A stretch of 64,000 nucleotides of DNA from the IMG/VR virus record IMGVR_UViG_3300045988_056849. The stretch is one strand, 5' to 3'. The DNA comes from a virus. The notes under the pieces were generated by a model, which saw only the letters and a list, made by a program, of their open reading frames with translations, made no database searches and was not told the origin of the DNA. This document shows positions 3,728 to 40,532 of the stretch, piece after piece. The position numbers and the translations under genes were made by a program. The number at the start of each line of letters is the position of its first letter. Position 1 is the stretch's first letter.

Positions 3728-4024
3728 ATGGACAATAGCAAAGAATATCTGCTTTGTGCAGCAATTCGTAGAGTAGAGCCGAGAGATTGCCCGAAAGTAT
3801 ATTGGGAACAATTCCACGACATCTACAAAATAGAATTGGGTTGGAGACATCCAGATATAATGCACCGATTTGGGAAGGAAGTATCACGCAACCTGAATGA
3901 CCAAGGCTTCTACACTTCCAAAGGACGTTTCGTGACAAGAGAGGAAGGATTGGAGATAGCAAGAGCCGCAGGTCAGGTTGATAAGATAATTGGAGGAGTA
4001 TTAACAAGTGAAGATTTATATTGA
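3728..4024 (+). CDS. hypothetical protein
   Basis: ATG 3728 directly after the previous TGA (3724-3726). The ORF-track start at 3704 would overlap. Confidence 0.5.
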   Translation: MDNSKEYLLCAAIRRVEPRDCPKVYWEQFHDIYKIELGWRHPDIMHRFGKEVSRNLNDQGFYTSKGRFVTREEGLEIARAAGQVDKIIGGVLTSEDLY

Positions 4025-4500
4025 TGCCTAAGATAATAATTTGTAGAGGTCTGCCAGGGTCAGGTAAAACTACTTGGGCGAAAGATTATGTTCAACGCAA
4101 TATCTTCAATCCTGCGGTAAGAGTAAACCGAGACGACATAAGGAAGATGCTTGCTATAACATATAATACTTTGACCGAAGAGTTTGTGAAGGGAATGGAG
4201 CGAGATATGATAACAAACGCTCTAAACTTTGGATTTGACGTTGTAGTTGATGATACTAACATATATACTTCGGCAGCAGAGCTTATAGTAGCAGCCATAG
4301 AACAATCCGATTGGGAAACGGTAAAAGTTGAGGTCAAAAGTTTCTTTGATACTCCAATTGAAACTTGCGAAGATAGACAAATGGAACGAAGTCCTCAAGA
4401 ACGAGTACCAGACTATCGAATCAGGCAACTCATGGATTATTATGAGAAGTACGGAAAGAGATTTGAAAACTATATAAAAAGAAGTGAGTGTGTAATATGA
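4024..4500 (+). CDS. P-loop kinase, polynucleotide-kinase-like (kinase domain only)
   Basis: Walker A GLPGSGKTT, RVNRDDIRKM and VVDDTN resemble the T4 Pnk kinase / AAA_33 layout. At 159 aa there is no phosphatase domain. Confidence 0.7.
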   Translation: MPKIIICRGLPGSGKTTWAKDYVQRNIFNPAVRVNRDDIRKMLAITYNTLTEEFVKGMERDMITNALNFGFDVVVDDTNIYTSAAELIVAAIEQSDWETVKVEVKSFFDTPIETCEDRQMERSPQERVPDYRIRQLMDYYEKYGKRFENYIKRSECVI

Positions 4501-6616: not shown

Positions 6617-6620
6617 AGTT

Positions 6621-8810: not shown

Positions 8811-8873
8811 AAAAGTTTGAATATTTGAGATTATCTTACAGCGTAGTTCAACCTTGTAAGAAAGAGGTAAAAG

Positions 8874-9092: not shown

Positions 9093-9094
9093 AG

Positions 9095-9340: not shown

Positions 9341-9497
9341 GTTCTTTGGTAGCAAACACCGTAAAGAACAAATCAAACAAGTTAAAAATCTTATCGTTGA
9401 CGCTCCGAAGAGAGAAGCAGTTGAGGACGTTCTGCGTCACCAATACGGCTACGAGGTAATCAACGGATTGAAAATTCACGATTATGAAGGAGAATGA
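9312..9497 (+). CDS. hypothetical small protein
   Basis: 61-aa ORF overlapping its neighbours. Confidence 0.35.
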   Translation: MSNLKKFKVKFFGSKHRKEQIKQVKNLIVDAPKREAVEDVLRHQYGYEVINGLKIHDYEGE

Positions 9498-9951: not shown

Positions 9952-10232
9952 GCAAAATCTACGGAGTTTATATGGCGTACACTAAATATGAAGTATTGCC
10001 TGATGAGGAGTGCAACAATCCAGACATTCCTAAATACCCACCCGAAATAGCGAGAGTGAGAATGTACGACAATAAGCAAGCACAAATGGATGCTTATGCT
10101 AATACGATGTGTCCTGCTTCTCAATGTTTTGAAGCCGATACGAAAGAAGAGGCAGACAAAATAGTTGAGGACTACAAAAAGAAGTTCCAAGATAAGGCTT
10201 GGCTTGAGGAAAACATAGAGCCGTATATTTGA
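9948..10232 (+). CDS. hypothetical protein
   Basis: ATG 9948 overlaps TGA 9949-9951 (ATGA). The ORF-track start is 9933. Confidence 0.5.
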   Translation: MSKIYGVYMAYTKYEVLPDEECNNPDIPKYPPEIARVRMYDNKQAQMDAYANTMCPASQCFEADTKEEADKIVEDYKKKFQDKAWLEENIEPYI

Positions 10233-10241
10233 TATCAAAGC

Positions 10242-10333
10242 GTTAAATTTTGGGCATTTTTAGTTAAAAGCGAAATTTCTACAAAGATTTTTCGCTTTTT
10301 ATTTTGCCGTTTGCGAAATAGTTTCTACCTTCG
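10242..10333 (+). promoter_or_regulatory. early-type promoter cassette copy C
   Basis: GTTAAAT block followed by TTTTGGGCA (the inverse of TGCCCAAAA in copies A and B). TTTG at 10303-10306, N19, TACCTTCG at 10326-10333. Confidence 0.6.
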
Positions 10334-10361
10334 TACCAGATAACAATTAAAACATACGGTT

Positions 10362-17989: not shown

Positions 17990-18439
17990 ATGAAACAAAG
18001 AAAAGTAAACATTATCATCAAAGGCTACGGCAAAAAGCCTTTGTATGCGACTTCACATTCAGCAGGAGCTGACTTATATTCAGCCAACGCTTCGGATATT
18101 GTTCTTCAGCCGATGGAACGCAAAATCATTCCCACGGGTTTGTTTTTGGAACTTCCTATTGACGCTGAAGCTCAAATAAGACCGAGAAGCGGATTGAGCG
18201 CAAAGAAAGGAATTGTAGCAATTCTTGGAACCATTGATGCCGATTATCAAGGAGAAGTTGGTATCATAGTAATTAATCTAAGCGATGAAGCGTTTGTAAT
18301 CGAAAGAGGAGAACGACTTGCTCAGATGGTTCTGAATGGAGAAGGAGGATTGTTCCAAGGAGACTGGGTTGAGGTTGAAGAGTTTTCCAGAGAGAGCGAA
18401 CGAGGAGCAGGTGGATTTGGACATACAGGTACAAAGTAA
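17990..18439 (+). CDS. dut: dUTP diphosphatase
   Basis: Trimeric dUTPase motifs SAGADL, RPRSGL, GTIDADYQGEVGIIVIN, ERGERLAQMV and RGAGGFGHTG. Confidence 0.92.
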   Translation: MKQRKVNIIIKGYGKKPLYATSHSAGADLYSANASDIVLQPMERKIIPTGLFLELPIDAEAQIRPRSGLSAKKGIVAILGTIDADYQGEVGIIVINLSDEAFVIERGERLAQMVLNGEGGLFQGDWVEVEEFSRESERGAGGFGHTGTK

Positions 18440-18681
18440 TGAACCAGTTCAGACAGTTCACTAACGGCAAAGGTTTGTTTATCGGGGTTGACTTTGGCTT
18501 TGGTAACGACTTTGCCGTTGAAACTCAAATACAGAAGCAGCCTGACGGGAGCTTGAAAATACTTTCGAGCAATATCATTGGACGTGCCAAAGATTACAAG
18601 AACGAAGAAAAGAGAGAACAAATTTGTAAGGAATATGAGAGATTATGCAATCAAGAAACCGTTGAGCAAAAATCAACTTGA
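18439..18681 (+). CDS. hypothetical small protein
   Basis: TAATG overlap with dut. 80 aa. Confidence 0.4.
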   Translation: MNQFRQFTNGKGLFIGVDFGFGNDFAVETQIQKQPDGSLKILSSNIIGRAKDYKNEEKREQICKEYERLCNQETVEQKST

Positions 18682-19198
18682 CGATTTGACTAATGGGCTT
18701 GTTAATGCTATGCGTTATTCCGACCCAAATGTTGAATACCCAAGTTACGATAAGGCGAAACAAGATGATGGGGTAATGGCTGAATGGTTTTATCCCATTT
18801 TCAATGGTACCAATGACTTCTCCGAGCTTACAGCCATTCATATGTACACTACTCAGGAAGCTACGTTTGAGAACGTAGGTGAGCTGCTATTGGGCATTGC
18901 TTTGACTGAGATGAAACACTACGATAAGCTGTCAGACTTTATCCGAAAGATAGGAGGAAAGATTGACCAGAGATATAACAACTCAGGCGTTACCGTAGGA
19001 AAGACCGCAGAAGAAGCGATTGAAATAGCAATCGGTGCGGAGGAGAAAACAATTGACTTCTATGAGAACTTGCAAAAGAAGCTCTTGAAGTTACAAGAAA
19101 CGGAGACAATCAAGATAGCTCTTCAACTGCTTGCTAAATTAGTAGCGGATGAGGTAGTTCATCTGAAACTATTAAAAGAACAATTAAAGAATGATTAA
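18635..19198 (+). CDS. ferritin-like di-iron protein (bacterioferritin/CotJC-like)
   Basis: ELTAIHMYTTQ, ALTEMKHYD (ExxH), GAEEKTIDFY and ADEVVHLK (ExxH). Start is uncertain: the ORF is open from 18578 and ATG 18635 was chosen. Confidence 0.6.
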   Translation: MRDYAIKKPLSKNQLDDLTNGLVNAMRYSDPNVEYPSYDKAKQDDGVMAEWFYPIFNGTNDFSELTAIHMYTTQEATFENVGELLLGIALTEMKHYDKLSDFIRKIGGKIDQRYNNSGVTVGKTAEEAIEIAIGAEEKTIDFYENLQKKLLKLQETETIKIALQLLAKLVADEVVHLKLLKEQLKND

Positions 19199-21128
19199 CA
19201 AAATGAAATGTAACGGTATTGATTTGTTAGCAGACTATGTGTTCTTGTCTAAATACTCTCAAAGACGAGAGGATGGACGACTTGAACACTGGGATGAAAC
19301 TATTGACCGTATCTACGAGATGCACAAGGTCAAGTTGAAACAGTTAGGTCTGCTTGGTGAAGAAACGGTTGCTATGATAGAAGAAGCAATGCGTTTGGAA
19401 GTTGATAAGAAAATCTTGTCTTCCCAGCGTGGGCGTCAGTTCGCTTCTCCTTCGGTAACGAGTGGAATATTGAAGCATGAAGCCAAGTTATACAATTGCT
19501 GTTCTACCTACGTTGACCGTGTAGAAGTATTCAGCGAAATCATGTATTTGCTTCTTTGTGGTTGCGGCGTTGGTTATTCCTTACATAAGGAGTACATTGA
19601 CAAGCTACCAATAGTCAAGCCGTATAACGGAGACCAAAGACCTCAATTTTTTGTTGAAGATAGTATCGAAGGATGGGCTGATTCAATCCGAGAGCTTATG
19701 ACGGCTCTATTTGAAGGCAAGTCCGCTGATATAGTCTTTGACGCTATCCGACCAGAAGGAGCGTTGATTGACGGTAAGTTCCTTGCACCTGGCCCAGAGC
19801 CGTTAATAAAAGCCCATAATCATATCAAAGAAGTCATGAAAGTCGCTCAAGGCAGAAAGCTCACGAGTATCGAAGTTCATGACATTATTTGTTATATAGC
19901 CGACAGTGTTGTGAGCGGAGGGGTGAGACGTTCTGCTATGATAGCCTTGTTCGACAAAGACGATGAGTTGATGCTCCGAGCTAAGACAGGAAGCTGGTGG
20001 ACGGACAATCCTCAAAGAGCTATGGCAAATAATAGTATTCTTGCTACTCTATCTGACCCACTGGGTTACGAGGAAATGAAAGACAAGTTACAAGTTATCC
20101 GTCAGTTTGGAGAGCCAGGTTTTGTAAACGTAAAGAGTTTCAAATATACAGTCAACCCTTGCGGTGAGATTGTAATGGAGCCTGCTATCAACGGCAAGTC
20201 TGGATTTGCGTTCTGCAATCTTGTAGAGATAAATGCCGAGCGAGTTAAAACCAAAGAGGAGTTCTTGGAAGCGTGTCGTGTAGCTTCGTTCGTAGCAACC
20301 GTTCAGGCTCTTTATACTGACTTCAAATATCTGTCTCCTGCTTCACGGGAAATAGCCGAGCGTGATAGAGCTATCGGAGTGAGCATAACAGGCATATATG
20401 CCAATCCTATCCTTCGGGGTGAGGTATTAAGAGAAGGTGCGAAGGTAGTTTCAGAAACCAATGCGGAATGGGCAGCAATATTCGGTATAAATAAGAGCCG
20501 TACTTGTACGACAATTAAACCGAGCGGCAATGCTTCTTCTATTCTTGGTTTGTATTGTAGTGGCATTCATCCAGCTCATGCTGAAAAATATCTGCGTAGA
20601 GTTCGCATCAAAACTTATAGCCCAGAGTTCCTTGCTTTGAAAGATACTCCGTTGGTAAAAGTTCTACGAGGGGATGAGGCTGTGATAAGTTTCCCAATTG
20701 AGTCTGATGACCCGAATATGATATTCAAAGACGAGGTATCATCCGTTGAGCATCTCAAGTTTATCGGTATGGTAAAACATTATTGGATAAACAAAGGAAG
20801 CGTTAATACCAAAGCCGTTGCTAACAATATATCCGCAACCGTTGAGGTGAAAGATGATGAGTGGGACGAAGTAGCAGCTGTTCTGTTTACCAACGATTAT
20901 CTATTCACTGGCGTGAGCTTGTTACCGAAGATGGGCGACCAAATTTATGACAACGCTCCATTCCAACGTTTATCTTCCTCAGAAGTCGAAAGTGAGTACA
21001 ATGCTATCAAAGAGTATCTTGATACCCACGAAGTAGATTTCAACGAGATAATGAGCGACCGTGAGAACTTCTATTCAGGCGACATGGTAGCCGTAGGATG
21101 TTCGGGAGGAGCCTGTGAATTGAAATAG
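19191..21128 (+). CDS. ribonucleotide reductase catalytic subunit (no ATP-cone; class II suspected, class unresolved)
   Basis: Active-site NPCGEI and a C-terminal redox pair GCSGGACELK. 645 aa. No NrdB-sized partner in the window. Confidence 0.85.
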   Translation: MINKMKCNGIDLLADYVFLSKYSQRREDGRLEHWDETIDRIYEMHKVKLKQLGLLGEETVAMIEEAMRLEVDKKILSSQRGRQFASPSVTSGILKHEAKLYNCCSTYVDRVEVFSEIMYLLLCGCGVGYSLHKEYIDKLPIVKPYNGDQRPQFFVEDSIEGWADSIRELMTALFEGKSADIVFDAIRPEGALIDGKFLAPGPEPLIKAHNHIKEVMKVAQGRKLTSIEVHDIICYIADSVVSGGVRRSAMIALFDKDDELMLRAKTGSWWTDNPQRAMANNSILATLSDPLGYEEMKDKLQVIRQFGEPGFVNVKSFKYTVNPCGEIVMEPAINGKSGFAFCNLVEINAERVKTKEEFLEACRVASFVATVQALYTDFKYLSPASREIAERDRAIGVSITGIYANPILRGEVLREGAKVVSETNAEWAAIFGINKSRTCTTIKPSGNASSILGLYCSGIHPAHAEKYLRRVRIKTYSPEFLALKDTPLVKVLRGDEAVISFPIESDDPNMIFKDEVSSVEHLKFIGMVKHYWINKGSVNTKAVANNISATVEVKDDEWDEVAAVLFTNDYLFTGVSLLPKMGDQIYDNAPFQRLSSSEVESEYNAIKEYLDTHEVDFNEIMSDRENFYSGDMVAVGCSGGACELK

Positions 21129-23186: not shown

Positions 23187-23968
23187 ATGGAAGCAACAAA
23201 TCAGAATTTAGACAGCGTATTAAAGAAGCTGAGAAAGTTACAAAACCTTTACGAAGGTGCAAAGAAAATCAACTCTGAAGGAGAAGCGAACGCAGCTGCT
23301 GCGGCTATACAAAGACTTCTTACCCAGTACAACTTGTCTATGGATGAGATTGGAACGGACGAGGAGAAAGCAAAAGATACTGTGTTTGAAGAGAAAGTGG
23401 ACGGATTCACCTACAAGAGAGTATCGGAGGAGAATGGGAGTTCCGTTTGTTATACGTTCTTTGTAAATGGAATTTCTGCAAATGTTTTCAAGTAGGAAGC
23501 ACTTACAGAAGATTGATGATTTTCGGTAAGAAAGAAAACATTGAGACCGTTAAGTGGTTGCGTGGAATGCTTGCTGAACGTTTCGTAGCGTTCTCCAAAA
23601 ATCGTTTCAAGGAGTACAAGAAAACCATGGAGTATGCTATGAAGCCTATCAGTATGGATAAGTATCAGAGAAGTTACTTGATGGGCTGTGCAGCTGGGCT
23701 GGATGCTAAGCTGAAAGAGGAGAGTGACCGAGAAAAAGCAAAGAATGCCGAATATGGAGCAAAAGTTACAGCTTTGGTAGTTCGCAATGATACAGCCGTT
23801 ACCGAGTATATTGAAAACAAGTACAAGGTTGGTAGAGGAAGAGCGAGAAAAGAGAATTTTGATTCAGCCAGAGCCTACGGATATAAGGATGGCAAGAACA
23901 CGGAGCTTCACAAGCAAGTAAGTGCGGGAGCGAAGAGTCAAGCCGATGGAGTGAAATTGCTTAAATAA
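23187..23968 (+). pseudogene. DUF2786-like gene split by a -1 frame change (23187..23495 and 23402..23968)
   Basis: The N-terminal piece has the DUF2786-like helix LRKLQNLYEGAKK..EGEANAAAAAIQRLLTQYNL. The second frame is open from 23402 and reads IGGEWEFRLLYVLCKWNFCKCF... as a natural continuation. No X XXY YYZ slippery site is present. Confidence 0.5.
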
Positions 23969-24067: not shown

Positions 24068-24832
24068 ATGTCGGGAATAATTTACAAATTCACTATAATG
24101 AGCAGTTTTAGATATTTCGGTCATAAGCCGTTCTATGTAGGACAATTTATGCGGGATGTTTCAAAAGAACAATTTTTGAGAAATGATTGTTTTGTATACG
24201 ATGGTAGCGGTAAGACTTGGGAAAGATTTTGTAAAGGACTCAAAAGAAAGTTTCCAACCTGCTGGCGTAAACTAATCAAACGAGAAGTCTTGTTTTATTC
24301 AGAGAATTGTTCGCAGAAGGCTCTTGATAGAATGGAAGAGTATTTCATCAAACATGAGAAGTCTCATTACTCATACGAGGTAGGCGGTTGCAACATACTA
24401 TGGGGAACTGCTAACAAGTTCGGTTCTGGAAGTCCTATGAAAGACCCAATGATTGCGGCTAAAGTTACTAAGCAATTACGAGGAAGAAGAGGAGCAAAAA
24501 GGTCAGAAGAAGGTAAGCGAAACATGTCTATTGCTGCTAAAAGGTCATGGGAGAATGCAAATAAGCGCAGAAGGTTAATTTCAAAGTCTATGTCTTCATA
24601 TATGCAGAACGGAGGAAAGGAACATTTGTCCAGAGTTAAGAAAGGAAGAAAGTTCAGCGATGAACATAGAAGGAACATTGCTTTGAATCATGCTGATATT
24701 AGCGGTAAAAATCATCCTTGTTACGGTAAGCATTTCAAATGGATAACAAATGGTTTAGTGGAACAAAGATTGGATGAAGGCAAATCAATTCCTGAAGGTT
24801 TTCAATACGGTAGAATTAAATACAAGAAGTAA
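24068..24832 (+). CDS. GIY-YIG homing endonuclease (free-standing)
   Basis: GIIYKFT-x-n-FYVGQ GIY-YIG module. The C-terminal part has repeated NUMOD3-like basic motifs (GRRGAKRSEEGKRNMS, GRKFSDEHRRNIA, GKNHPCYGK). Confidence 0.75.
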   Translation: MSGIIYKFTIMSSFRYFGHKPFYVGQFMRDVSKEQFLRNDCFVYDGSGKTWERFCKGLKRKFPTCWRKLIKREVLFYSENCSQKALDRMEEYFIKHEKSHYSYEVGGCNILWGTANKFGSGSPMKDPMIAAKVTKQLRGRRGAKRSEEGKRNMSIAAKRSWENANKRRRLISKSMSSYMQNGGKEHLSRVKKGRKFSDEHRRNIALNHADISGKNHPCYGKHFKWITNGLVEQRLDEGKSIPEGFQYGRIKYKK

Positions 24833-27104: not shown

Positions 27105-28259
27105 ATGTTTGAACAAGCAGCATGGTATGATAAGCTCCCAAACGAGAGCTTGGAAGTGTACGAGCCTCATTTGAGATTATTCTTTGAGACTATGTACGAG
27201 CGACAAATGATTTGGAAACGTAGGTTCATAGACAAGAAGGAAAGACCTTGGACAGACAACAAGATATTCCAAGAGTCAAAATTCACGAACGTGTACCGAG
27301 AACTTGACCGAAACAGTCAATGGCAAATCAAAAACATTCTTCTTGATGAAAGTCTTTCTTTGAAGAACTTGGTTTGGAAGATGATGGTTTTCCGTTTCTT
27401 CAACAATCCTGAAACATTCGAGTTTGAACCGAAGGGAAAGAGCGTTCAACCCAGTCTATTCGGAGCACCTATCAAATCAGGACTTAAACAAGCTCAATCT
27501 ATGGACGAGCTTATTTCAGCCAAGAAATGGAAGAATGGTATTCCCGATTGGGAGGAGTATGACGAAGATGAATTCAGTCGTTTCATTGCGGGCGTTCGGA
27601 GTTCGGGTCAAAATCCATATACAACCGCTTACTTGATAAACTCTCAAGCAACACCTGGTCAGCCGAGAGATTATTGTTACACAAGGGTTGTAATACCTCA
27701 CCTGCATAAGAACGTAGGAAAGCTCATTGCTACGGTGATGAAAGCTAAAAGACCAGAAGATATTATTGAGTATCTGAAAACCTTCCCTGCGGTGGCGGAT
27801 TTTATTGCTCATGAGTTCTATCAGGACTTCACATATATACCGAGATATACCAACCGTAAATTTATGAAGTTTGACCAAAACGACTTCACGAACGTTGGGC
27901 CAGGTTGTAGTATAGGCATACGCCTTATTTATCCGAGCTTGAAAACTGTAAGAGAGCAAAAACAAGCTATCTACTGGTTGAAGGAAGCAGCAACCGAATG
28001 GCTTGAGAAAATTGGTAAAGAGAAGGGTGAGCCGTTTCCGTATCTTGATTGGGACAAAGAGAGTGGAGAATATTACACTTTCAGTCGCCAAGAGTATGAG
28101 GAAGATGAATTGAACCGTGATGTGCTATATACTGAAATAACCCTTCACCAGATTGAGATGTGGTTATGCGAGTTCCAGAAATATTGGAAGATGATTATTG
28201 GAGAAGGCAAACAGCGCAGCAAATTTCAACCGAGAAGCAAATCAATTATTTCAAAATAA
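27105..28259 (+). CDS. putative DNA base hypermodification protein (5-hmdU DNA kinase helical-domain / aGPT-pyrophosphorylase-related family)
   Basis: The N-terminal signature ERQMIWKRRF...RPWTDNKIFQESKFTNVYRELDRNSQW was recognised from memory of that family. No P-loop is present. Confidence 0.55.
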   Translation: MFEQAAWYDKLPNESLEVYEPHLRLFFETMYERQMIWKRRFIDKKERPWTDNKIFQESKFTNVYRELDRNSQWQIKNILLDESLSLKNLVWKMMVFRFFNNPETFEFEPKGKSVQPSLFGAPIKSGLKQAQSMDELISAKKWKNGIPDWEEYDEDEFSRFIAGVRSSGQNPYTTAYLINSQATPGQPRDYCYTRVVIPHLHKNVGKLIATVMKAKRPEDIIEYLKTFPAVADFIAHEFYQDFTYIPRYTNRKFMKFDQNDFTNVGPGCSIGIRLIYPSLKTVREQKQAIYWLKEAATEWLEKIGKEKGEPFPYLDWDKESGEYYTFSRQEYEEDELNRDVLYTEITLHQIEMWLCEFQKYWKMIIGEGKQRSKFQPRSKSIISK

Positions 28260-28261
28260 CA

Positions 28262-29311
28262 ATGGACAAGAAATTAACAGAATTTTTTGAGAAGAAAGAA
28301 TTTGAGGTTGTAGAAAAGAAAACTACAACCCAAGTTCTTATTCAGAACTTACTTGCGTTCAGTGTACGTGAGAAGAAGGGAGGGTTGTTTGATATTTCAA
28401 TCAACATAGTAAAGGACGAAGAAGAAAAGGAGAAGCTGAGAAAGCGTATCAACCGTGAAGGCTCTTCGGAGAACGAAGGTTGGAACATTGACTTTGAGAA
28501 AACTCCGATACTTCACAACGTAACGATAAGCCAATTTGAAGCCTTCTGTAAGCAAACTAAGCTCATTGCTCAGGTGAAACGTCTTTCGGAGTTCCGAGAG
28601 GTACAGAGCGACTTCACGTTGGCAGTAGCAGAAAAGGACGGCAAAACTTTGAAGTGGCGTTCAAACCTTCCTACGGAGAAGCATATTGTTGATGCTGTAT
28701 TCAAAGGCAGCGAGTACACTCACCGTTCAGTAGGTTTGGGCGGTTTAACTCTTACCAAGAAAGACGTTGTATTGGACTTGGGTGGTAATATCGGAGCTTT
28801 CACTTGCGACATCTTCGATAAAGTCAAAAAGGTCATTGTATTTGAACCTGAAGATGTGAACTATGAATTTCTATCTACGAATATAGAAGACAACGGAGCA
28901 AAGAACGTAATTGCCCACAAACAAGCCGTAGTTGGTAATGACGATAAGGTGCGTGACTTCTATCTGGGTAAAGCTCCGTATTATTATTCATTCTTGGTAA
29001 AACATAACCGCAAGCGAGTTCCTGTTGAGTGCGTGAATATCAACGAGGTTATGAAGAAGTACAACCCTACCAAGATGAAGGTTGATATTGAAGGCTCTGA
29101 ATGGGAAGTTCTTATCAACTGCACGGACTTCGGGAATGTTGACCAGATAATCTTTGAGTACAACTTCGATATGAATATGGACTTGAAAGAGGACTTCAAG
29201 CGGTTCAAGGCTCTTCGGAAACATCTCAAGAAACACGGCTTTGACGTTCAGGAGATGGAGCGAGATATGAAGCAGAATTGGAATTTGGTTTTCATGGTAA
29301 CAAAGAAATAA
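28262..29311 (+). CDS. FkbM-family SAM-dependent methyltransferase with an unknown ~170-aa N-terminal domain
   Basis: VVLDLGGNIGAFT, VIVFEPEDVNYEFLSTNIEDNGAKNV and MKVDIEGSEWEVL. ATG 28262 lies 2 nt after the previous stop. Confidence 0.7.
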   Translation: MDKKLTEFFEKKEFEVVEKKTTTQVLIQNLLAFSVREKKGGLFDISINIVKDEEEKEKLRKRINREGSSENEGWNIDFEKTPILHNVTISQFEAFCKQTKLIAQVKRLSEFREVQSDFTLAVAEKDGKTLKWRSNLPTEKHIVDAVFKGSEYTHRSVGLGGLTLTKKDVVLDLGGNIGAFTCDIFDKVKKVIVFEPEDVNYEFLSTNIEDNGAKNVIAHKQAVVGNDDKVRDFYLGKAPYYYSFLVKHNRKRVPVECVNINEVMKKYNPTKMKVDIEGSEWEVLINCTDFGNVDQIIFEYNFDMNMDLKEDFKRFKALRKHLKKHGFDVQEMERDMKQNWNLVFMVTKK

Positions 29312-30942: not shown

Positions 30943-32676
30943 ATGGGTAATTCATATGCTAAACAGTTAGATGCCATTGCTCTTGCAGAAGCGAAGCTGA
31001 AGGCAAAAAGGTTTAGGACACTTGAGAAAGCTCTAAGGTCAGACTCACCAGAGGATATGATAAAGGCTACTCAGGTGTTCAACCAAATTCAGCCAAAAGT
31101 GGAGCAAAATACAAAGGCATTTTTCATTGACCCATTGGAGTTCAATTCCAATTTAGGGTACAAAGATAAGCCGTTTTCATTGACGTACACTACGTTGAAG
31201 AGAATGTCGAAGACACCTATCATAAATTCAATTATCAAAACAAGAAAGAATCAAGTAGCAGACTTCGCAGAGCCTCAAGAAAACAAGTATTCAACTGGCT
31301 TCGTTATCCGAAAGAAACCGAAATTTGGAATTGAACAAAAGATGGATAACAAAGACCGAAAGATTGCGTATGCTATTACTGAATTTATCTTGAAGGGCGG
31401 TAATGTTAGTCAATGGGAGCATGACGACTTCGATACGTTTATCAGAAAGATTGTTGATGACTCTTTGACTTACGACCAATTAACTTTCGAGTGTATTCGC
31501 AACCGAAGAGGACAATTGGAGAGTTTCATGGCTACTGATGCCGCAACTTTCCGAATGGCTGATTCATACTTTGATAAGGATTATGATAATGTTTTCTTCC
31601 AAAGAAACGGAGCGAATGTATGGCAAGATAGGAACGATTATGGGCCAAAGGTTTATGGCTATTATCCTGCTTATGTTCAGGTGTATCAGAATGTCAAGGT
31701 CAATGAGTTCTATCCTTGGGAGCTTTGTTTTGGAGTTCGCAATCCTTCTACTTCAATATACTCAAATGGGTATGGTTGTTCCGAGCTTGAAGAGCTTATC
31801 AACGTTGTAACATCTATGCTTTGGGGAGATGAATACAATAGACGTTTCTTCAGTCAAGGTTCAGCTCCGAAAGGTTTATTGCGTATTAAGGGAACAAACA
31901 ACGAAGCAGCACTTCAGCAATTCAAACAACAGTGGCAGTCCATGATTACAGGAGTAATGCAGTCTTGGAAAACTCCTGTCGTGGAAGCGGACGTGGATTG
32001 GATAGACCTTCAGAAGAACAACCGTGATATGGAGTATAGTTCTTGGATGGAATATCTTATCAAACTATCTTGTGCCATATATTCAATTGACCCTTCCGAG
32101 ATAGGATGGGACATCAGCCGTTCTTCGGGGAACGGAGGATTGTTTGAAGGAAGTCAGGAACAACGCCTGAAACATTCCAAAGACAAGGGTTTGTATCCAC
32201 TTCTGAAATTCCTTCAGAGGAAAATCAACAAATATATCATTGAGCAAATCAATCCTGATTTTGAACTTGTATTCGTAGGTTTGAACGGCTTGACTATCGA
32301 AGAAGAGCTTGATATGGACATCAAGAAAGTAGGCAGCTTCATGACCGTAAACGAAGCACGTGAGAAATACGAGATGAAACCGCTTGAGTTCGGAGACGTA
32401 CCGACCAATGCTACTCTTATTCAGAACAAGAATGCGGAGATGATGGCTAAACAAGGTGGTCAAGGAATGGAGATGGATGAGAACGGAAACATCAAACCGA
32501 GTTCCGAGAAGAAAGGAGAGGAGCCTGACGCAGAAGAGGAAGATGAGGAGCAAAATCCTTTTGACTTGTATGCCGAAGAAAATGACGAGGAGGACACTAA
32601 TAAGGGTGGACTGAGAGAAACGTTTGTAAAAGCATTTGATAACTTTCTAAATAACGAAGAAAATGGAAGTAACTAA
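30943..32676 (+). CDS. portal protein
   Basis: 577 aa and the first gene of the morphogenesis block. It has an acidic C-terminal tail and a portal-like core stretch RRFFSQGSAPKGLLRIKG. Confidence 0.6.
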   Translation: MGNSYAKQLDAIALAEAKLKAKRFRTLEKALRSDSPEDMIKATQVFNQIQPKVEQNTKAFFIDPLEFNSNLGYKDKPFSLTYTTLKRMSKTPIINSIIKTRKNQVADFAEPQENKYSTGFVIRKKPKFGIEQKMDNKDRKIAYAITEFILKGGNVSQWEHDDFDTFIRKIVDDSLTYDQLTFECIRNRRGQLESFMATDAATFRMADSYFDKDYDNVFFQRNGANVWQDRNDYGPKVYGYYPAYVQVYQNVKVNEFYPWELCFGVRNPSTSIYSNGYGCSELEELINVVTSMLWGDEYNRRFFSQGSAPKGLLRIKGTNNEAALQQFKQQWQSMITGVMQSWKTPVVEADVDWIDLQKNNRDMEYSSWMEYLIKLSCAIYSIDPSEIGWDISRSSGNGGLFEGSQEQRLKHSKDKGLYPLLKFLQRKINKYIIEQINPDFELVFVGLNGLTIEEELDMDIKKVGSFMTVNEAREKYEMKPLEFGDVPTNATLIQNKNAEMMAKQGGQGMEMDENGNIKPSSEKKGEEPDAEEEDEEQNPFDLYAEENDEEDTNKGGLRETFVKAFDNFLNNEENGSN

Positions 32677-37204: not shown

Positions 37205-37410
37205 AAAAGATTAAACACTTTGGTAAATGGTTATTGACCGTAGTCATTACCGTTCTTTATTTGGTAACATTCTTTTGGGTAGGACATGTATTGTACTATC
37301 TATCGAAGGTGTTCAAAATTATCGGACATACGTTCATGCTTGAGTTCGCTTCGGCAAAAGACGAGTTAAGAACGTTTTGGAAACATTATACAAATTTAGG
37401 AGACATATGA
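37201..37410 (+). CDS. small membrane protein
   Basis: ATGA overlap. TM segment WLLTVVITVLYLVTFFWVGHVLYYL. Confidence 0.5.
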   Translation: MKKIKHFGKWLLTVVITVLYLVTFFWVGHVLYYLSKVFKIIGHTFMLEFASAKDELRTFWKHYTNLGDI

Positions 37411-38339
37411 TTTTCAATCAAGGACAGATACAAGATATGTTATCAATTCTCAAAAGGTACGAATTGGTATTCATAGCAGGTCAGTTAGGATTGGATTATC
37501 TTTCTCAATCGGATAAGGATATACTGATTGCTGCTGGAATCAATCTTGATAAGTATAAGAACAAGAAAGGAGTAATTGAGCACGCATTCCTTTTCGGTAT
37601 ATTGGCTGAGGCTATCGGGGATGCGAGAGCAAAGAAAATGACTTATGCTCAGTTTCAGAAGTTTCTTGCTTCGGGTAATTTCATACCGCTTACCGAAGAA
37701 GAGGAGTTTGCCCTTCAAACCGTAAAGAATAGAGCATACACCGACATCACCAGTTTAGGAAACCGAATGAGGACTGGGTTGAGTAACGTAGTATTGAGAA
37801 ATAATCAACAACAGACTCTGGTAGTTCAGAATATGATTAAGCAAAAGACTATCAAAGCCGTTGAACTCCGTATGGGAGCGAGAGGACTTGCGGCAGACCT
37901 TGCCGAGACTTCTCAGGATTGGGAAGTTGATTGGTTGAGAATTGCTTACTATCTTACCCACGAAGCCTATAATTCAGGACGTGCTCAGAGTATCTTGAAA
38001 GAGTACGGAGCTGATGCTGAGGTTTATTTCGATGTTTACCCAGGTGCTTGTCAGCGTTGTCGGGAGCTTTACTTGACTGACCCTGAAGACCCAGATAGCG
38101 AGCCGATTGTTTTCAAACTCAAAGATATTATTGCTAATGGTAACAATATCGGGCGAAAGGTTAAGGAGTGGAAGCCGACTATTTCACCAACTCACCCTTA
38201 TTGTCGTTGTACGATAAATCACAAGAAAGCAGGTTTTGCTTGGGATGCAGAGCTGAGAGCCTTCACCAAACCTATCAAGAAAACTTCCACTAATCCAAAG
38301 TTAAAAGGAGTGAAGTTGAATATAAAAGTATCGAAATAA
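37407..38339 (+). CDS. MuF-like (SPP1 gp7 family) head morphogenesis protein
   Basis: C-terminal CQRC...THPYCRCT motif (H-P-x-C-R-C). ATG 37407 overlaps TGA 37408-37410. Confidence 0.6.
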   Translation: MIFNQGQIQDMLSILKRYELVFIAGQLGLDYLSQSDKDILIAAGINLDKYKNKKGVIEHAFLFGILAEAIGDARAKKMTYAQFQKFLASGNFIPLTEEEEFALQTVKNRAYTDITSLGNRMRTGLSNVVLRNNQQQTLVVQNMIKQKTIKAVELRMGARGLAADLAETSQDWEVDWLRIAYYLTHEAYNSGRAQSILKEYGADAEVYFDVYPGACQRCRELYLTDPEDPDSEPIVFKLKDIIANGNNIGRKVKEWKPTISPTHPYCRCTINHKKAGFAWDAELRAFTKPIKKTSTNPKLKGVKLNIKVSK

Positions 38340-38347
38340 GATTGTAA

Positions 38348-39025
38348 ATGAAAACTGAAAAATTGTTACTCATCCAGCCGCATAGTGATGATATTCTCTT
38401 TTGTTGTTCTCATCTGCTGTTCCTTCCTCAATACGAGGTTCAGGTGCTGACCGTAGAGAATGACCCAAAGAGAATAGCGGAGGATGAAAAATTGTTTGAT
38501 TTTCTCAATATTCCGTTCCATCATCTTGAATTAGATTTTCATGATGAAAGTTATTACGAGTTCCATAAGAATTACAAAGAAGTAACGGTGGAAGCAACGT
38601 ATAAACATTTGAATGAATACTTCGGGAGGGAAACGCTGAACGAGATTGAGGAAACGCTTGTAAATTGGGTTAGAAAGTTCTTGAAAAAGAACAAAGGGTA
38701 CACGGTGGTAGCTCCTTGGGGAGTTGGTCACCCATTTCATCTTTTCGTTCGGGAGACTTTACAAGGAGCGTTGAGTTACATGGAGTATTATCGGGAGTTC
38801 CCTCACTCCTATAAAAGACGTTCTCAACCTCAAGTAGAGAAACAAAAGCAAGAATACACTCTGAAACGTTCCGTAACAGTTGAGGAGTTTCATGAAGTGA
38901 AGTGGAAACTTGCTTCCAAATTCTATCGTTCTCAATCAGGTTTACAGTTCTACGAACAGGGTTATATTAAGAAACAGCTGCCCGAAGAGATATATGTGAG
39001 GGAAGCGGATGAATTACCATTTTGA
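38348..39025 (+). CDS. PIG-L/LmbE-family de-N-acetylase
   Basis: N-terminal LLLIQPHSDDILF (the [AP]H[PS]DD motif) and downstream GVGHPFHLF (HxxH). Confidence 0.6.
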   Translation: MKTEKLLLIQPHSDDILFCCSHLLFLPQYEVQVLTVENDPKRIAEDEKLFDFLNIPFHHLELDFHDESYYEFHKNYKEVTVEATYKHLNEYFGRETLNEIEETLVNWVRKFLKKNKGYTVVAPWGVGHPFHLFVRETLQGALSYMEYYREFPHSYKRRSQPQVEKQKQEYTLKRSVTVEEFHEVKWKLASKFYRSQSGLQFYEQGYIKKQLPEEIYVREADELPF

Positions 39026-39026
39026 T

Positions 39027-40478
39027 ATGAAGATATTTATTGCTGATTTTCAGATAGCGAAATATGGCGGTATTGTAGAATATGTTGCCAGTATGCTCAA
39101 AGCGTTCCGAGATTTGGGACACGAAGTAGATGTTGCTCAAATGACTCCTGCTTCTACTACCCAGAACGCTTATAACAAGAAAGTGAAAGAATTTGAAAGC
39201 GGAGAACATCAACGCAAGATTAAGTTCCATTCTCAGGCAGGAGGTTACGAGAAAGATGAAGTAACAGGTTATTGGCGCAATAACTATTATGGATATTTCT
39301 TGCCTCCAAGTAACCGTATCGGAGTATATGAGAAGAATGCGGTTGAGAGGTGGAAGGAGCTGGTGAAGGATGCTGATATAATTCTTTGGAATTTCATGCC
39401 CACGAAAAGTTCTGCTTGGAATAAGAAGGGCGTGGAGTTCGATTTTTGGCATAAGTTCTTTGACCTTCCTTCTTCGATTAAACAAGTGTTCTTGGTACAC
39501 GATGCTTATTTCAATGTAAGAGCTTCCAATATATCGGCTCTGAAAGATAAGATAATGTTTATGGCTTGTGCTCATTTAGCTGCTTATCAATGCTGTTCTG
39601 AAATAGGTATTCCGAGAAGTTTGCTATTGAATCCACGATACCTACCCAGCGGAGCTAAGATGACCGTGAAGATGATGAATAAACGCAAGGAGGACTTTTT
39701 TGCTGCTCATATGTTTAAGTCTATGAAGCATATGGAGGAGCTGATTGCTGCCGTTCCGTATATTCAGAAGGGAGAGGAGGAACGTTTCAAAGTAAAGATT
39801 GCTGGGACAGGCATAGAATATAACTATATGACCAGCGAGACGAAAACAAAGAGTAACTATATGTGTACTACGAAGCGTGACCCAGACCTTCCGAAGAAAC
39901 TTGACGGCAAACTTTCTCTTTGGGATAGAGCCGAGAAGTTTGGAATGGAGTACATGGGTCAGATGTCGGGCGGTGAAGTTATAGATACTTTGAGAAATAC
40001 GAAGTTTGCTATTGACCCATCTTGGGCTGAACATTATGCACGTTATTGTCGTACCCATATAAACGGCTTTATTATCGAAGCGATGTTATGCGGTGCTTAT
40101 CCTGTTTTGCGTGATTATAGAGGACTGGCGAAGGTGGAAGGAAAGGAAATATATGACCCACTATTCGAGAACGTCAGAGCAATCATTATTCCGTGGGATG
40201 CTACTCCGAAAGAATTTGCTGAGGCTTTGAAAAAGGCTGCTAAAATGTCTCCTGCTAAATTCTTGAAAGATACAAAGTACAACTTTGAGTTAGTACACGA
40301 ATTGTTTAATGCTACGAAGAATGCCGAAGAGATAATCAGACTGGTTAAAGGAGGAAGAAAGCTGGTAAGGAAAGAACTTGAAAAAGGCAAAGACTCACCG
40401 AATGTTAAGAAGATAACTCATGAAATCATGGAAGAGTTTTATCATATAGAACTTCCAATTGAGTGGGAAACGGATTGA
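39027..40478 (+). CDS. GT-B fold glycosyltransferase (GT4-like)
   Basis: N-terminus MKIFIADFQIAKYGGIVEYVASMLKAFRDLGHEVDV. C-terminal HINGFIIEAMLCGAYPVL is an E-x7-type motif. ATG lies 2 nt after the previous TGA. Confidence 0.65.
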   Translation: MKIFIADFQIAKYGGIVEYVASMLKAFRDLGHEVDVAQMTPASTTQNAYNKKVKEFESGEHQRKIKFHSQAGGYEKDEVTGYWRNNYYGYFLPPSNRIGVYEKNAVERWKELVKDADIILWNFMPTKSSAWNKKGVEFDFWHKFFDLPSSIKQVFLVHDAYFNVRASNISALKDKIMFMACAHLAAYQCCSEIGIPRSLLLNPRYLPSGAKMTVKMMNKRKEDFFAAHMFKSMKHMEELIAAVPYIQKGEEERFKVKIAGTGIEYNYMTSETKTKSNYMCTTKRDPDLPKKLDGKLSLWDRAEKFGMEYMGQMSGGEVIDTLRNTKFAIDPSWAEHYARYCRTHINGFIIEAMLCGAYPVLRDYRGLAKVEGKEIYDPLFENVRAIIIPWDATPKEFAEALKKAAKMSPAKFLKDTKYNFELVHELFNATKNAEEIIRLVKGGRKLVRKELEKGKDSPNVKKITHEIMEEFYHIELPIEWETD

Positions 40479-40532
40479 CGCAGTTATTATCTTTATCATA
40501 ATGTTAATCATGTAAAATAAACATAATGAATT

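Follow-up and report, generated by a model that had tools for sequence, protein, structure and literature searches.

Two adjoining genes and their families

The locus lies in a window of 64,000 nucleotides, the whole stretch of DNA that was analysed, taken from the circularly permuted genome (~99 kb) of an uncultured phage. Its central features are two consecutive genes, here called ORF1 and ORF2, which an independent gene prediction for the source contig delimited in the same way. These and other relevant genes of the window are listed in Table 1. The closest cultured relatives are Bacteroides phages, and the host is probably a member of the Bacteroidota; the phage resembles the proposed 'Gratiaviridae', and its terminase similarity suggests Bacteroides hosts.

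Table 1. Coordinates and assignments of the features discussed in the text
Feature	Position	Strand	Assignment
P-loop kinase-only protein	4024..4500	+	polynucleotide-kinase/KTI12/PSTK type; AAA_33 E=2e-18, KTI12 E=4e-8
dUTPase	17990..18439	+	PF00692, E=3.2e-28
Ribonucleotide-reductase-like protein	19191..21128	+	phrog_367, E=1.3e-109; nucleotide supply
ORF1	27105..28259	+	384 aa; standalone HMUDK_hel protein, 'aGPT-Pplase clade 1' type
ORF2	28262..29311	+	349 aa; ATG at 28262, 2 nt past the ORF1 stop (which ends at 28259)
ORF2 N-terminal region	28262..28741	+	~residues 1-160, mixed alpha/beta, no family match
ORF2 C-terminal domain	28742..29311	+	FkbM SAM-dependent methyltransferase; PF05050, TIGR01444, phrog_8156
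PIG-L-like protein	38348-39025	+	PIG-L E=0.088, under cut-off; weak assignment
GT-B-type glycosyltransferase-like protein	39009-40478	+	Glycos_transf_1 E=3.6e-4, under cut-off; weak assignment

ORF1 contains the sequence ERQMIWKRRF at residue 32 and RPWTDNKIFQESKFTNVYRELDRNSQW at residue 47. A search for a Walker-A motif in ORF1 found none, in agreement with the preliminary description, which had reported a reading frame with this signature and no P-loop and had placed it in the helical-domain group of DNA hypermodification proteins. A profile match of the expected kind was indeed found: ORF1 matched Pfam family HMUDK_hel (PF18723) over its full length (E=8.3e-49, 166.9 bits, cut-off 25), and a match to phrog_2396 spanned residues 20-377. 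It also aligned end to end with residues 316-597 of SP10 gp186 (E=1e-23) and with M6 gp55 (E=2e-13), and its alignment with CBA120 orf156 took in 93% of the query. SP10 gp186C, M6 gp55 and ViI gp160-type proteins were all confirmed as PF18723; these correspond to the 'aG/PT-PPlase1' of Lee et al. 2018 (ViI gp160/CBA120 orf156, M6 gp55 and the C-terminal domain of SP10 gp186). Identity to the named HMUDK_hel proteins is only 22-26%; judged by sequence, ORF1 is a true member of the family alongside ViI gp160, M6 gp55 and SP10 gp186C.

The suggested relation to the aGPT-pyrophosphorylases holds for clade 1 and not for clade 2 (now Pfam ADDT, PF18724), the only aGPT-Pplase clade with demonstrated transferase activity. 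ADDT gave no match to ORF1 at E<=1, and BLASTP showed no similarity between ORF1 and M6 gp51; in a control, both M6 gp51 and ViI gp247 matched ADDT. A clade-2 assignment was ruled out on these grounds, as was a 5-hmdU DNA kinase proper, since ORF1 has no P-loop kinase domain. The HMUDK_hel family comprises 2321 cluster representatives at 50% identity, nearly all of them standalone proteins. No activity for any HMUDK_hel protein is reported in the literature, and in-vitro reconstitution did not need ViI gp160 or M6 gp55 (PMC8989533). Given that no member has an established function, the family offers ORF1 no transferable mechanism.

ORF2 is, by its profile matches, an FkbM-family methyltransferase. 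It carries VVLDLGGNIGAFT at residue 169, VIVFEPE at 191 and KVDIEGSEWEVL at 273, and residues 172-328 matched PF05050 Methyltransf_21 (E=5.6e-9, 36.8 bits versus a cut-off of 22.7). Matches were also obtained to TIGR01444 fkbM_fam (69.2 bits, cut-off 37.7) and to the methyltransferase family phrog_8156 (E=1e-20). Among 36 homologues, LDLGGNIGAF, FEPE and KxDIEGxE were invariant, including residues D172, G174, N176, G178, E195, P196, K273, I276, E277, G278 and E280. The AF2 model (pLDDT 90.9) has a Rossmann methyltransferase fold, and Foldseek retrieved class I methyltransferases and viral FkbM proteins, down to E=1e-17. The preliminary description was therefore right about the position of this gene and its C-terminal FkbM motifs, and also about its N-terminal domain, for which it had recognised no relative: residues 1-160 matched nothing in Pfam or PHROGs. 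The AF2 model of this region is confident except for residues 64-80, a structure search gave no specific fold match, and the region is less conserved than the methyltransferase half, with full-length homologues down to 45% identity. Family memberships and gene content are established.

Viral and bacterial relatives of FkbM typically O-methylate hydroxyl groups or sugars. BFVD matches also pointed to such enzymes, as did a weak RfbT match. ORF2 shares the SAM-binding and DIEGxE motifs and the Rossmann fold with FkbM of FK506 biosynthesis and with V. cholerae RfbT, but has the additional N-terminal region of ~160 aa and lies among DNA-base modification genes, whereas typical FkbM contexts are polyketide or polysaccharide loci. 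We found no report in the literature of an FkbM enzyme acting on DNA and, in line with the preliminary description, none in the described 5-hmdU pathways.

Conserved residues and predicted fold of ORF1

Conservation was assessed with ~135 HMUDK_hel representatives whose mutual identity is below 50%. Residues conserved in at least 90% of them correspond to ORF1 R33, W49, F60, N62, R65, D68, R97, F233, G265, P266, G267, G271, E351, C355, E356, K359 and Y360. The motifs FTNVYRELD, GPG and IExxLCEFxKY are common to ORF1 and the named members, and ORF1 retains the family-invariant E-x3-C-E-x2-K motif (E351, C355, E356, K359). The invariant polar residues are consistent with an enzyme more than with a passive domain.

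The AF2 model of ORF1 is all-helical (pLDDT 91.4). When it was searched with Foldseek against 350,542 PDB chains, ranks 1-2 were taken by PaMx11 gp46 PUGT (8z2m, 8z2n), a 5-PmdU glycinyltransferase, although these matches are weak (E=0.14-0.4, TM 0.33-0.45); helix-hairpin-helix glycosylases ranked next. In addition, the M6 gp51 motif EVETVLC247KWK and ORF1 IE351MWLC355EFQK have equal Glu(-4)-Cys spacing. The catalytic residue of PaMx11 gp46 is Cys247, and the metal ligands of Pplase2 are Glu/Thr (PMC11472151; PMC13458397). The residue following the Glu is Met in ORF1, where the transferases have the metal-binding Thr. ORF1 may resemble the ADDT/Pplase2 proteins (M6 gp51, ViI gp247, PaMx11 gp46 PUGT, SH-Ab 15599 Pplase2) in its predicted helical, glycosylase-like fold, in the Glu(-4)...Cys motif of the C-terminal helix and in occurring in 5-hmdU phages, but differs in that known members need kinase-made 5-PmdU, and no such kinase was found here.

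We predict that ORF1 is a Cys-dependent enzyme acting on a 5-hydroxymethyl-pyrimidine in DNA. As the core post-replicative enzyme of the clade and a helix-hairpin-helix, glycosylase-like protein, it would flip out this base; Cys355 would then attack C6, and the C5 substituent would be exchanged or activated.

ORF1 might instead be a non-catalytic DNA-binding or base-recognition partner, which guides or regulates some other enzyme, possibly the KTI12/PSTK-like protein at 4024-4500, or which reads or protects 5-hmdU DNA. The Pfam name, 'helical domain of 5-hmdU DNA kinase', suggests such a role, which also agrees with the fusion of HMUDK_hel to a kinase in SP10 gp186, its position beside a kinase in M6 (gp54, gp55), the dispensability of gp160 and gp55 in vitro and the presence of a kinase-only P-loop protein in the window. 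However, a set of invariant Cys, Glu, Lys, Asp and Arg residues across so diverse a sample is typical of an active site, and the kinase of the window, encoded 23 kb from ORF1, does not resemble 5-hmdU DNA kinases. Moreover, SP10 has no clade-2 transferase (Table 3 of PMC5889632), leaving gp186C as the only candidate for glutamyl transfer. We therefore regard a purely non-catalytic ORF1 as improbable.

Nucleotide supply, kinase and transferase genes

An HMM scan of the window detected no thymidylate-synthase-like reading frame, as had been observed before. A search beyond the window, which the preliminary description had proposed, yielded a candidate: in each relative covered by sufficient sequence, whether FkbM-positive or FkbM-negative, a thymidylate-synthase-like gene lies outside the region equivalent to the window. 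Some of these relatives carry this gene, ORF1 and ORF2 on one contig, and it was seen in close relatives whose neighbouring genes are up to 96-100% identical, but not in the available part of the contig from which the window comes. From these relatives, we infer a dUMP hydroxymethylase in this exact genome.

The protein of the relatives (413 aa) has SPO1 gp29, SP8, SP10 'dUMP hydroxymethylase' and M6 gp58 as its best cultured-phage matches (36-47% identity, E~1e-44). Against these proteins it scored 130-172 bits, with the highest value for the SP10 enzyme, whereas E. coli ThyA gave 66 bits. It retains the catalytic Cys and the Asn that specifies uracil, and it shares the long C-terminal extension of the SPO1/SP10/M6 hydroxymethylases. 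Its scores were below all NCBIfam thymidylate-synthase equivalog cut-offs (75 versus 174.6 bits; 71 versus 327). Companions of the gene include a YfbR-like 5'-deoxynucleotidase, as in M6, and DUF1599/Nmad1. In one lineage (L220), Asp occupies the specificity position, so that the family may act there on hydroxymethyl-C and not hydroxymethyl-U.

These data bear on the possibility that the phage has ordinary DNA, the thymidylate-synthase-like protein being a divergent thymidylate synthase and the roles of ORF1 and ORF2 being unrelated to base modification. True thymidylate synthases also have the Cys and Asn residues, and databases often label such proteins 'thymidylate synthase'. Nevertheless, the similarity to the SPO1/SP10/M6 enzymes with their extension, scores far under the equivalog cut-offs and co-occurrence with 5'-deoxynucleotidase, Nmad1, HMUDK_hel, TAGT and radical-SAM genes make ordinary DNA very unlikely.

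The dUTPase of the window would supply dUMP and bar uracil from DNA, a pool-level support for a dUMP hydroxymethylase. The Pfam Ribonuc_red_lgC match of the ribonucleotide-reductase-like protein is weak. Just upstream of this protein, at 18635-19198, a ferritin/DPS-like protein is encoded. The dUTPase, reductase and kinase that had been put forward as supporting genes are thus all present, but the part assigned to the kinase is less secure. The P-loop protein matched phrog_505 polynucleotide kinase (E=3.5e-28), and its PSTK match was under the cut-off; it matched neither PF18748 (HMUDK_HMUD1) nor PF18747 (HMUD2) and did not align with M6 gp54 or SP10 gp186N. In view of this missing similarity it was ruled out as a recognisable 5-hmdU DNA kinase and can at most be put forward for the phosphorylation of nucleotides or bases.

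BLASTP searches of the composite genome revealed no 5-hmdU DNA kinase, and no amino-acid:DNA transferase was found in searches of the window and composite genome. BLASTP queries with ViI gp226, M6 gp52 and M6 gp53 gave no match, and the scanned reading frames contained no PLP decarboxylase, M6-type radical-SAM isomerase, FAD lyase or acetyltransferase families. Like the relatives of this phage, and probably the phage itself, other HMUDK_hel phages (ViI, M6, SP10) encode a thymidylate-synthase homologue of the dUMP-hydroxymethylase type, but they differ in encoding 5-hmdU DNA kinases (PF18748 or PF18747). ViI and M6 also have an amino-acid:DNA transferase (PF18724); SP10 has no separate one. 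Characterised transferases of the ADDT kind all need 5-PmdU, and the phage has no kinase available for 5-hmdU activation, which counts against the pathway proposed below.

Variable tailoring genes and a proposed modified base

Each of the 80 relatives compared has ORF1 at the corresponding position, and the gene belongs to the core of the clade. ORF2 is an accessory gene, present in 20 of 77 relatives and missing even where ORF1 of the relative is 93% identical; pairing of the two genes is not obligatory. Among 77 loci, the slot after ORF1 held FkbM alone in 17, TAGT with FkbM in three, TAGT with a radical-SAM gene in one and none of these in 56. The TAGT gene of the relatives matched PF20691 (E=3e-10) and phrog_842 (E=2e-36), and the radical-SAM enzyme of some relatives is of the SPASM type. 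Wherever ORF2 is near ORF1, it lies downstream on the same strand, either adjoining it or with only the TAGT gene between. The window itself contains no TAGT gene; its sole glycosyltransferase candidate is the weak GT-B match 10 kb off.

A second variable site lies upstream of the PIG-L-like/GT pair (38348..40478). The pair is a core pair, in a block conserved in 39 relatives with a radical-SAM insertion in five. In relatives, the slot before it is occupied by the gene for a radical-SAM enzyme or an N6/N4 methyltransferase, or by the FkbM gene. In one relative (L221), the FkbM fusion and a radical-SAM gene are directly upstream of the pair. The pair may itself be another component of the modification system.

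Similar gene neighbourhoods were found elsewhere. A 37-kb contig of an unrelated PolA phage carries an FkbM homologue separated by 6 nt from an HMUDK_hel gene, with dUTPase, thymidylate-synthase-like, dCMP-deaminase and GT-like genes nearby, and a third lineage has the gene order dUTPase, GT, FkbM, P-loop kinase, thymidylate-synthase-like. The nearest non-clade FkbM homologues thus have HMUDK_hel, thymidylate-synthase-like or dUTPase neighbours in two unrelated phage lineages; at 78 of 80 generic metagenome FkbM loci, no association with modification genes was seen. Comparative genomics places ORF1 and ORF2 in a DNA-base modification context on account of the hydroxymethylase-like gene, the TAGT and radical-SAM genes in the same slot and the FkbM-HMUDK_hel adjacency in an unrelated phage; these conservation patterns and gene linkages are established. 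Of the earlier proposal that a two-gene pair installs an undescribed modification, the context is retained and the fixed pairing is not.

Given that ORF2 is absent from most relatives, its adjacency to ORF1 could reflect an insertion hot spot. ORF2 would then be an unrelated 'moron', placed beside ORF1 only because the intergenic site tolerates insertions, and FkbM, the PIG-L-like/GT pair and the radical-SAM enzyme would modify a glycan of the host capsule/LPS or of a virion protein. Consistent with this are the lack of ORF2 in 56 of 77 relatives, including some with 93%-identical ORF1, the position of the L221 FkbM gene beside the PIG-L-like/GT pair within the structural module, and the generic FkbM loci that are unlinked to HMUDK_hel or thymidylate-synthase-like genes. 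Sugars are also the usual methylation targets of FkbM enzymes, and capsular-polysaccharide proteins are among the giant-virus FkbM matches. For the 'Gratiaviridae' glycosyltransferase, a host-capsule role has been proposed by Benler et al. (PMC8008677). On the other hand, a TET-associated DNA-base glycosyltransferase occupies the same slot in relatives, the closest FkbM homologues outside the clade have HMUDK_hel, thymidylate-synthase-like and dUTPase genes as neighbours in two unrelated lineages, and any ORF2 near ORF1 keeps the same orientation and follows it directly or after a TAGT gene. We consider a glycan role for ORF2 rather unlikely.

The reading we favour, with a probability of roughly 0.6, is that the phage DNA contains 5-hmdU in place of some or all thymidine, which is modified by ORF1 on the polymer and tailored by ORF2. 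5-Hydroxymethyl-dU would be supplied by the dUMP-hydroxymethylase-like enzyme, the YfbR-like 5'-deoxynucleotidase and the dUTPase of the window, and after its incorporation the base would be modified further on the DNA polymer. ORF2 would be an optional tailoring enzyme in some clade members, a SAM-dependent O-methyltransferase acting on a sugar that a phage glycosyltransferase has added or on the hydroxymethyl group itself, and FkbM-positive phages would bear a methylated version of the base of the clade. Our best guess is that ORF2 O-methylates a hydroxyl of the modified base.

This scheme follows the same pre-replicative logic as the M6, ViI, PaMx11, SP10, PhiW-14 and SH-Ab 15599 pathways. 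The dUMP-hydroxymethylase-like enzyme and HD-type 5'-deoxynucleotidase parallel M6 gp58/gp59, a dUTPase and an HMUDK_hel gene are present, and tailoring genes vary between relatives in both cases. The clade differs from described pathways in its tailoring set (FkbM, TAGT glycosyltransferase and SPASM radical-SAM) and in its host, which is probably a member of the Bacteroidota. A further likeness is to glycosylated-base systems, including T4 glucosyl-hmC, TET/TAGT phages and base J (glucosyl-hmU), in that relatives have a TAGT-family gene between ORF1 and FkbM and that the closest FkbM homologues elsewhere adjoin glycosyltransferase and thymidylate-synthase-like genes. We know of no methylated glycosyl-hm-base. 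To our knowledge, all worked-out pathways involve a clade-2 transferase as well as a 5-hmdU DNA kinase. Because neither of the two enzymes on which the described pathways rely was found, the DNA base is probably one not yet described, and the system is probably a new variant of thymidine hypermodification.

A bolder form of this proposal, which we put forward tentatively as a possibility, is a hypermodification free of both kinase and ADDT. ORF1 would act as a Cys-dependent C5-methylene transferase on 5-hmdU DNA, FkbM, TAGT and SPASM radical-SAM enzymes would diversify the base, and ORF2 would O-methylate it. If so, standalone HMUDK_hel would be the long-missing active enzyme of 'clade 1', and candidates for the base would include 5-methoxymethyl-dU and a methylated form of glycosyl-hmdU, a 'methylated base J'. 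It would be the first O-methylated hypermodified DNA base, in a widespread clade of uncultured ~100-kb phages.

Hypermodified thymidines shield phage DNA from restriction enzymes and CRISPR nucleases, and they have also yielded enzymes for 5-hmU labelling and mapping. HMUDK_hel ('clade 1') is as widespread as clade 2, and the clade described here has HMUDK_hel without the kinase or transferase. Its natural variants with FkbM, TAGT or radical-SAM genes can be set against others that lack all three, so that the functions of HMUDK_hel, and of an FkbM enzyme on DNA, become open to direct testing. Should the hosts be Bacteroides, the modification would affect sequencing, restriction and engineering of these phages.

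Membership and possible activity of ORF1

ORF1 and ORF2 are very probably parts of a thymidine hypermodification system unlike any described so far, judging from sequence comparisons of both genes and of their surroundings. The preliminary description had given the two ORFs as separated by 2 nt, quoted peptide motifs from them and noted that ORF1 has no P-loop; all of these observations were reproduced, including the lack of a Walker-A motif. Its proposal that ORF1 is a member of a hypermodification family was upheld by a profile check, in which ORF1 matched PF18723 (HMUDK_hel) in Pfam (E=8.3e-49, 166.9 bits, cut-off 25). In addition, the function-unknown family phrog_2396 matched residues 20-377. 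The C-terminal half of SP10 gp186 (E=1e-23) and M6 gp55 (E=2e-13) each aligned with ORF1 end to end, and no alignment was obtained with M6 gp51. Further cultured-phage matches, at ~25% identity, were 'hypothetical proteins' of ViI-like (CBA120 orf156), Vibrio and Klebsiella phages and of Bacillus phage YungSlug.

Calibration of the Pfam families with known proteins placed M6 gp55, CBA120 orf156 and SP10 gp186C in PF18723, the characterised transferases M6 gp51 and ViI gp247 in PF18724 (ADDT), and the kinases in PF18748 or PF18747. PF18723 proteins were listed as 'aG/PT-PPlase1' by Lee et al. 2018 (PMC5889632). Lee et al. 2021 showed amino-acid:DNA transferase activity for clade-2 (PF18724, or Pplase2) proteins only, and their reactions in vitro did not depend on gp160 or gp55 (PMC8989533); Pplase2 is likewise the sole subject of two later papers on structure and biochemistry (PMC11472151; PMC13458397). 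The Pfam assignments and the studies of Lee et al. thus firmly link the ORF1 family to thymidine hypermodification. When a diverse HMUDK_hel alignment was used as query, the same phage clade was retrieved again, both as proteins and as viral contigs. In the SPO1-like Bacillus phage YungSlug (MT416612.2; locus L217, 6068-7656), HMUDK_hel lies ~1 kb upstream of a 413-aa SP10-like thymidylate synthase (TS) homologue, and the gene before it encodes a Tad2-like (Thoeris anti-defence 2) domain, not a kinase.

Among 1.84 billion representative proteins, we detected 2321 HMUDK_hel members at E<=1e-3, nearly all of them standalone proteins of 290-420 aa. Conservation computed on ~135 representatives less than 50% identical to each other revealed an invariant or near-invariant polar set (R33, N62, R65, D68, R97, D241, G265-P-G267, E351, C355, E356 and K359), a sequence pattern that fits an active site. 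The C-terminal segment IE351-M-W-L-C355-E-F-Q-K resembles EVE-T-V-L-C247-K-W-K of M6 gp51. In PaMx11 gp46, a homologue of M6 gp51, Cys247 is the nucleophile attacking C6, and a Glu-Thr pair in Pplase2 binds the essential metal (PMC11472151; PMC13458397). The AlphaFold model of ORF1 was of high confidence and all-helical (pLDDT 91.4, pTM 0.90). A sequence search of the PDB gave nothing useful; in a Foldseek search of 350,542 PDB chains, the top two matches of the model were PaMx11 gp46 entries, both weak (E=0.14, TM 0.33-0.45), followed by the glycosylases OGG, AlkA, EndoIII and ROS1. A profile-profile comparison of HMUDK_hel with clade 2 was uninformative, as the clade-2 side was a two-sequence alignment of M6 gp51 and ViI gp247, which aligned poorly with each other. 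From the invariant residues, the C-terminal motif and the weak fold match, we infer that ORF1 may be a Cys-dependent enzyme acting on a flipped-out 5-substituted pyrimidine.

The phage genome around the two genes

All credible genes of window 1-64000 are on the + strand, GC skew is positive in every 2-kb bin, and minus-strand ORFs are only short, nested in + strand genes and probably spurious. Exact ORF1 sequence was found in ERZ28666920 scaffold_57 (ENA; 98,831 bp), which is circularly permuted relative to the window. More than 600 ORF1 homologues were detected in metagenomes; the best 120 of these showed at least 68% identity, many being located on 95-125-kb contigs. At the nucleotide level, the 4-kb region had no match among 50,697 phage records.

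The window terminase was 35% identical to terminases of Bacteroides phages DAC and SJC. In gene content, the phage resembles the 'Gratiaviridae' proposed for phages of Bacteroides and Parabacteroides, as described in PMC8008677, a paper that makes no mention of thymidylate synthase, hydroxymethylation or hypermodification. The ferritin/DPS-like protein agrees with the DPS-like enzymes reported for 'Gratiaviridae'; alternatively, it could be an RNR-associated di-iron subunit.

Several local features were also observed. A NUMOD3/GIY-YIG-type homing-endonuclease gene (24068-24832) separates the DUF2786/DUF7168 gene from that of the 5'-3' exonuclease, and is missing in L003 (6225-7083), a relative with identical ORF1. 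The DUF7168 gene is represented by two ORFs in different frames in the window (23187-23495 and 23516-23968) and by a single 259-aa ORF in L003. AT-rich leaders that lack a Shine-Dalgarno sequence precede both ORF1 and ORF2; such leaders are usual in Bacteroidota.

Features of the window, of its relatives and of compared phage contigs
Feature	Coordinates	Strand	Description
P-loop kinase-only protein	4024-4500		158 aa; resembles kinase half of polynucleotide kinase, KTI12/PSTK
Terminase large subunit	16226-17944		
Ferritin/DPS/rubrerythrin-like protein	18635-19198		directly upstream of RNR-like gene, overlapping it
ORF1	27105-28259	+	384 aa
ORF2	28262-29311		349 aa; ATG start 2 bases after ORF1 stop
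Portal	30943-32676		
Conserved block between portal and head/tail genes	37407-42500		310-aa ORF, PIG-L-like, GT-B-like, 655-aa ORF
dUTPase, RNR-like protein, UvrD-type helicase, 5'-3' exonuclease, tail and baseplate proteins			further genes of the window
RecA, Mre11/Rad50-like proteins, second UvrD helicase			upstream of the window
DnaB, DnaG-like primase, SF2 helicase, DnaE polymerase			further upstream, in relatives
413-aa TS-family protein, DnaE, YfbR-like 5'-deoxynucleotidase, DUF1599 ('nucleotide modification associated domain 1') protein			upstream of RecA, in relatives
L220 (Logan SRR21686402_67371)	3183-9580		unrelated 37-kb PolA/Prim-Pol phage contig
L218, third lineage	6364-10334		ERF/RecT phage contig
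L222, third lineage	3727-8083		ERF/RecT phage contig

Predicted supply of 5-hmdU and enzymes of described pathways

The preliminary description had reported no TS-like hydroxymethylase in the window. Our search of the window likewise found no TS homologue there, and extending the search to the rest of the genome, as it had proposed, yielded a candidate outside the window, in relatives. In one of these, UViG_3300045988_076549, the TS-like region is on the same contig as ORF1 (89% identity) and ORF2 (96-98%). The TS-like and YfbR-like genes were kept in all relatives whose locus reached far enough, whether FkbM-positive or FkbM-negative, and we infer from these relatives that the exact source genome also has the TS-like gene, which should lie in a further ~16 kb of its contig.

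Best cultured-phage matches of the TS-like protein were SPO1 gp29, SP8, SP82G, SP10 (annotated 'dUMP hydroxymethylase') and M6 gp58, at 36-47% identity and E~1e-44. It scored 130-172 bits against SPO1/SP10/M6-type proteins versus 66 bits against E. coli ThyA, and far below every NCBIfam TS equivalog cut-off. The SPO1/SP10/M6-type dUMP-hydroxymethylase-like proteins have a common C-terminal extension of ~150 aa that is not in E. coli ThyA (compared locus L014, 1769-3010; M6; SP10; YungSlug), and the TS-like protein of the relatives has it too. The catalytic Cys is present, and Asn occupies the uracil/cytosine-discriminating position. Together, these matches, scores, residues and the extension favour a predicted dUMP hydroxymethylase over a thymidylate synthase. 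In M6, too, a TS-like gene is paired with that of a YfbR-like HD hydrolase (gp58, gp59). Combined with the dUTPase of the window, the TS-like and YfbR-like proteins would form the pre-replicative set that is usual in 5-hmdU phages.

Downstream enzymes of the described pathways were sought in a composite whole genome, pieced together from the window and from sequence flanking it and its close relatives. In this composite, BLASTP detected no homologue of three types of 5-hmdU DNA kinase, M6 gp51, ViI gp247, PLP enzymes or the M6 radical-SAM enzyme, and PF18724, PF18747 and PF18748 were absent from all Pfam scans. The P-loop kinase-only protein, earlier suggested as kinase support, was not recognisable as a 5-hmdU DNA kinase, as it matched neither PF18748 nor PF18747 and gave no alignment to either M6 gp54 or SP10 gp186N; it is the sole kinase-like candidate for the system, and a speculative one. 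It is preceded by a T4 Y16D-like small protein (both within 3728-4500), with no phosphatase domain or ligase nearby.

ORF2 and the tailoring genes

A longer reading of ORF2 from GTG at 28160 is possible; this GTG is not taken as the start in an independent annotation of the source contig. The earlier assignment of ORF2 as an FkbM-type methyltransferase with an unfamiliar N-terminal domain was borne out: residues 172-328 matched PF05050 (Methyltransf_21, E=5.6e-9), TIGR01444 (fkbM_fam, 69 bits, cut-off 37.7) and phrog_8156, and residues 1-160 had no match in Pfam or PHROGs and no assignment by Foldseek. SAM-binding and DIEGxE motifs were invariant across 36 homologues. The structural model, of high confidence (pLDDT 90.9), matched class I methyltransferases in the PDB (E~1e-7) and viral FkbM proteins in BFVD (down to 1e-17). 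FkbM enzymes are typically hydroxyl O-methyltransferases, and a weak match to RfbT agreed with this.

Local gene order was kept in 80 IMG/VR relatives: 5'-3' exonuclease, 113-aa ORF, ORF1, a variable slot, 110-aa ORF and portal. Slot contents were counted in 77 informative loci. Of these, 56 lacked FkbM, TAGT (TET-associated DNA-base glycosyltransferase) and radical-SAM tailoring genes alike, 17 had an FkbM gene only, three a TAGT-family gene together with FkbM, and one a SPASM radical-SAM gene with a TAGT-like gene. ORF2 can be missing even in relatives with 93%-identical ORF1. The slot is a tailoring-gene slot and ORF2 an accessory gene in it. The two genes, previously regarded as a pair, do both lie in a modification context, but ORF1 is the core component and ORF2 an optional decoration. 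The relatives' TAGT gene matched PF20691 ('TET-associated glycosyltransferase', E=3e-10) and phrog_842 ('beta-glucosyl-HMC-alpha-glucosyltransferase', E=2e-36); enzymes of the TAGT family add sugars to hydroxymethyl-pyrimidines in DNA.

The conserved block downstream of the portal gene, seen in relatives L174-L216 and L221, has a variable slot of its own. This slot contained a SPASM radical-SAM gene in five relatives (L193, L194, L201, L202 and L212) and an N6/N4 DNA methyltransferase in L194 and L221. In L221, the homologue of 37407-38339 is separated from the PIG-L-like/glycosyltransferase (GT) pair by an FkbM fusion and a radical-SAM gene. The slot contents of relatives indicate that accessory genes move between the two slots. 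PDB sequence searches with the GT-like, PIG-L-like and TAGT proteins gave nothing useful.

The nearest FkbM homologues outside the clade (36-43% identity over the methyltransferase domain) were examined in their own contigs. Gene order in L220 is dCMP deaminase, TS-like, GT4-like (weak), a nucleoside-2-deoxyribosyltransferase-like small ORF, PolA, dUTPase, FkbM and HMUDK_hel, the last beginning 6 nt after FkbM, being 22% identical to ORF1 and containing LCEFHK; a search for its relatives found one distant locus only. L218 and L222 have dUTPase, glycosyltransferase, FkbM, two small ORFs, a P-loop (thymidylate-kinase-like) protein and TS-like; this cluster lacks HMUDK_hel and is a candidate system for making a methylated glycosyl-hydroxymethyl-pyrimidine. 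Asp occupies the base-discriminating position in the TS-like proteins of both L220 and L218; by this residue, both systems may be built on hydroxymethyl-C, and HMUDK_hel may not be restricted to hydroxymethyl-uracil systems. Among 80 generic metagenomic FkbM loci from an FkbM-alignment scan, HMUDK_hel was nearby in two, both of the same clade, and none had a TS-like gene within 6 kb; the linkage is therefore confined to the closest FkbM subfamily. The FkbM neighbourhood of Pelagibacter phage HTVC112P (ParB-like, SNF2-like) also had no link to thymidylate synthase or HMUDK_hel.

In every context found, ORF2-type FkbM was accompanied by a TS homologue and by a glycosyltransferase, whether firmly assigned or a candidate, and often by dUTPase. 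The most economical reading is that ORF2 would O-methylate a hydroxyl of the modified base, either on a sugar or on the hydroxymethyl group. The clade is a clean natural setting in which to assign a function to the large HMUDK_hel family, and it may include the first case of a DNA hypermodification methylated by an FkbM-type enzyme.
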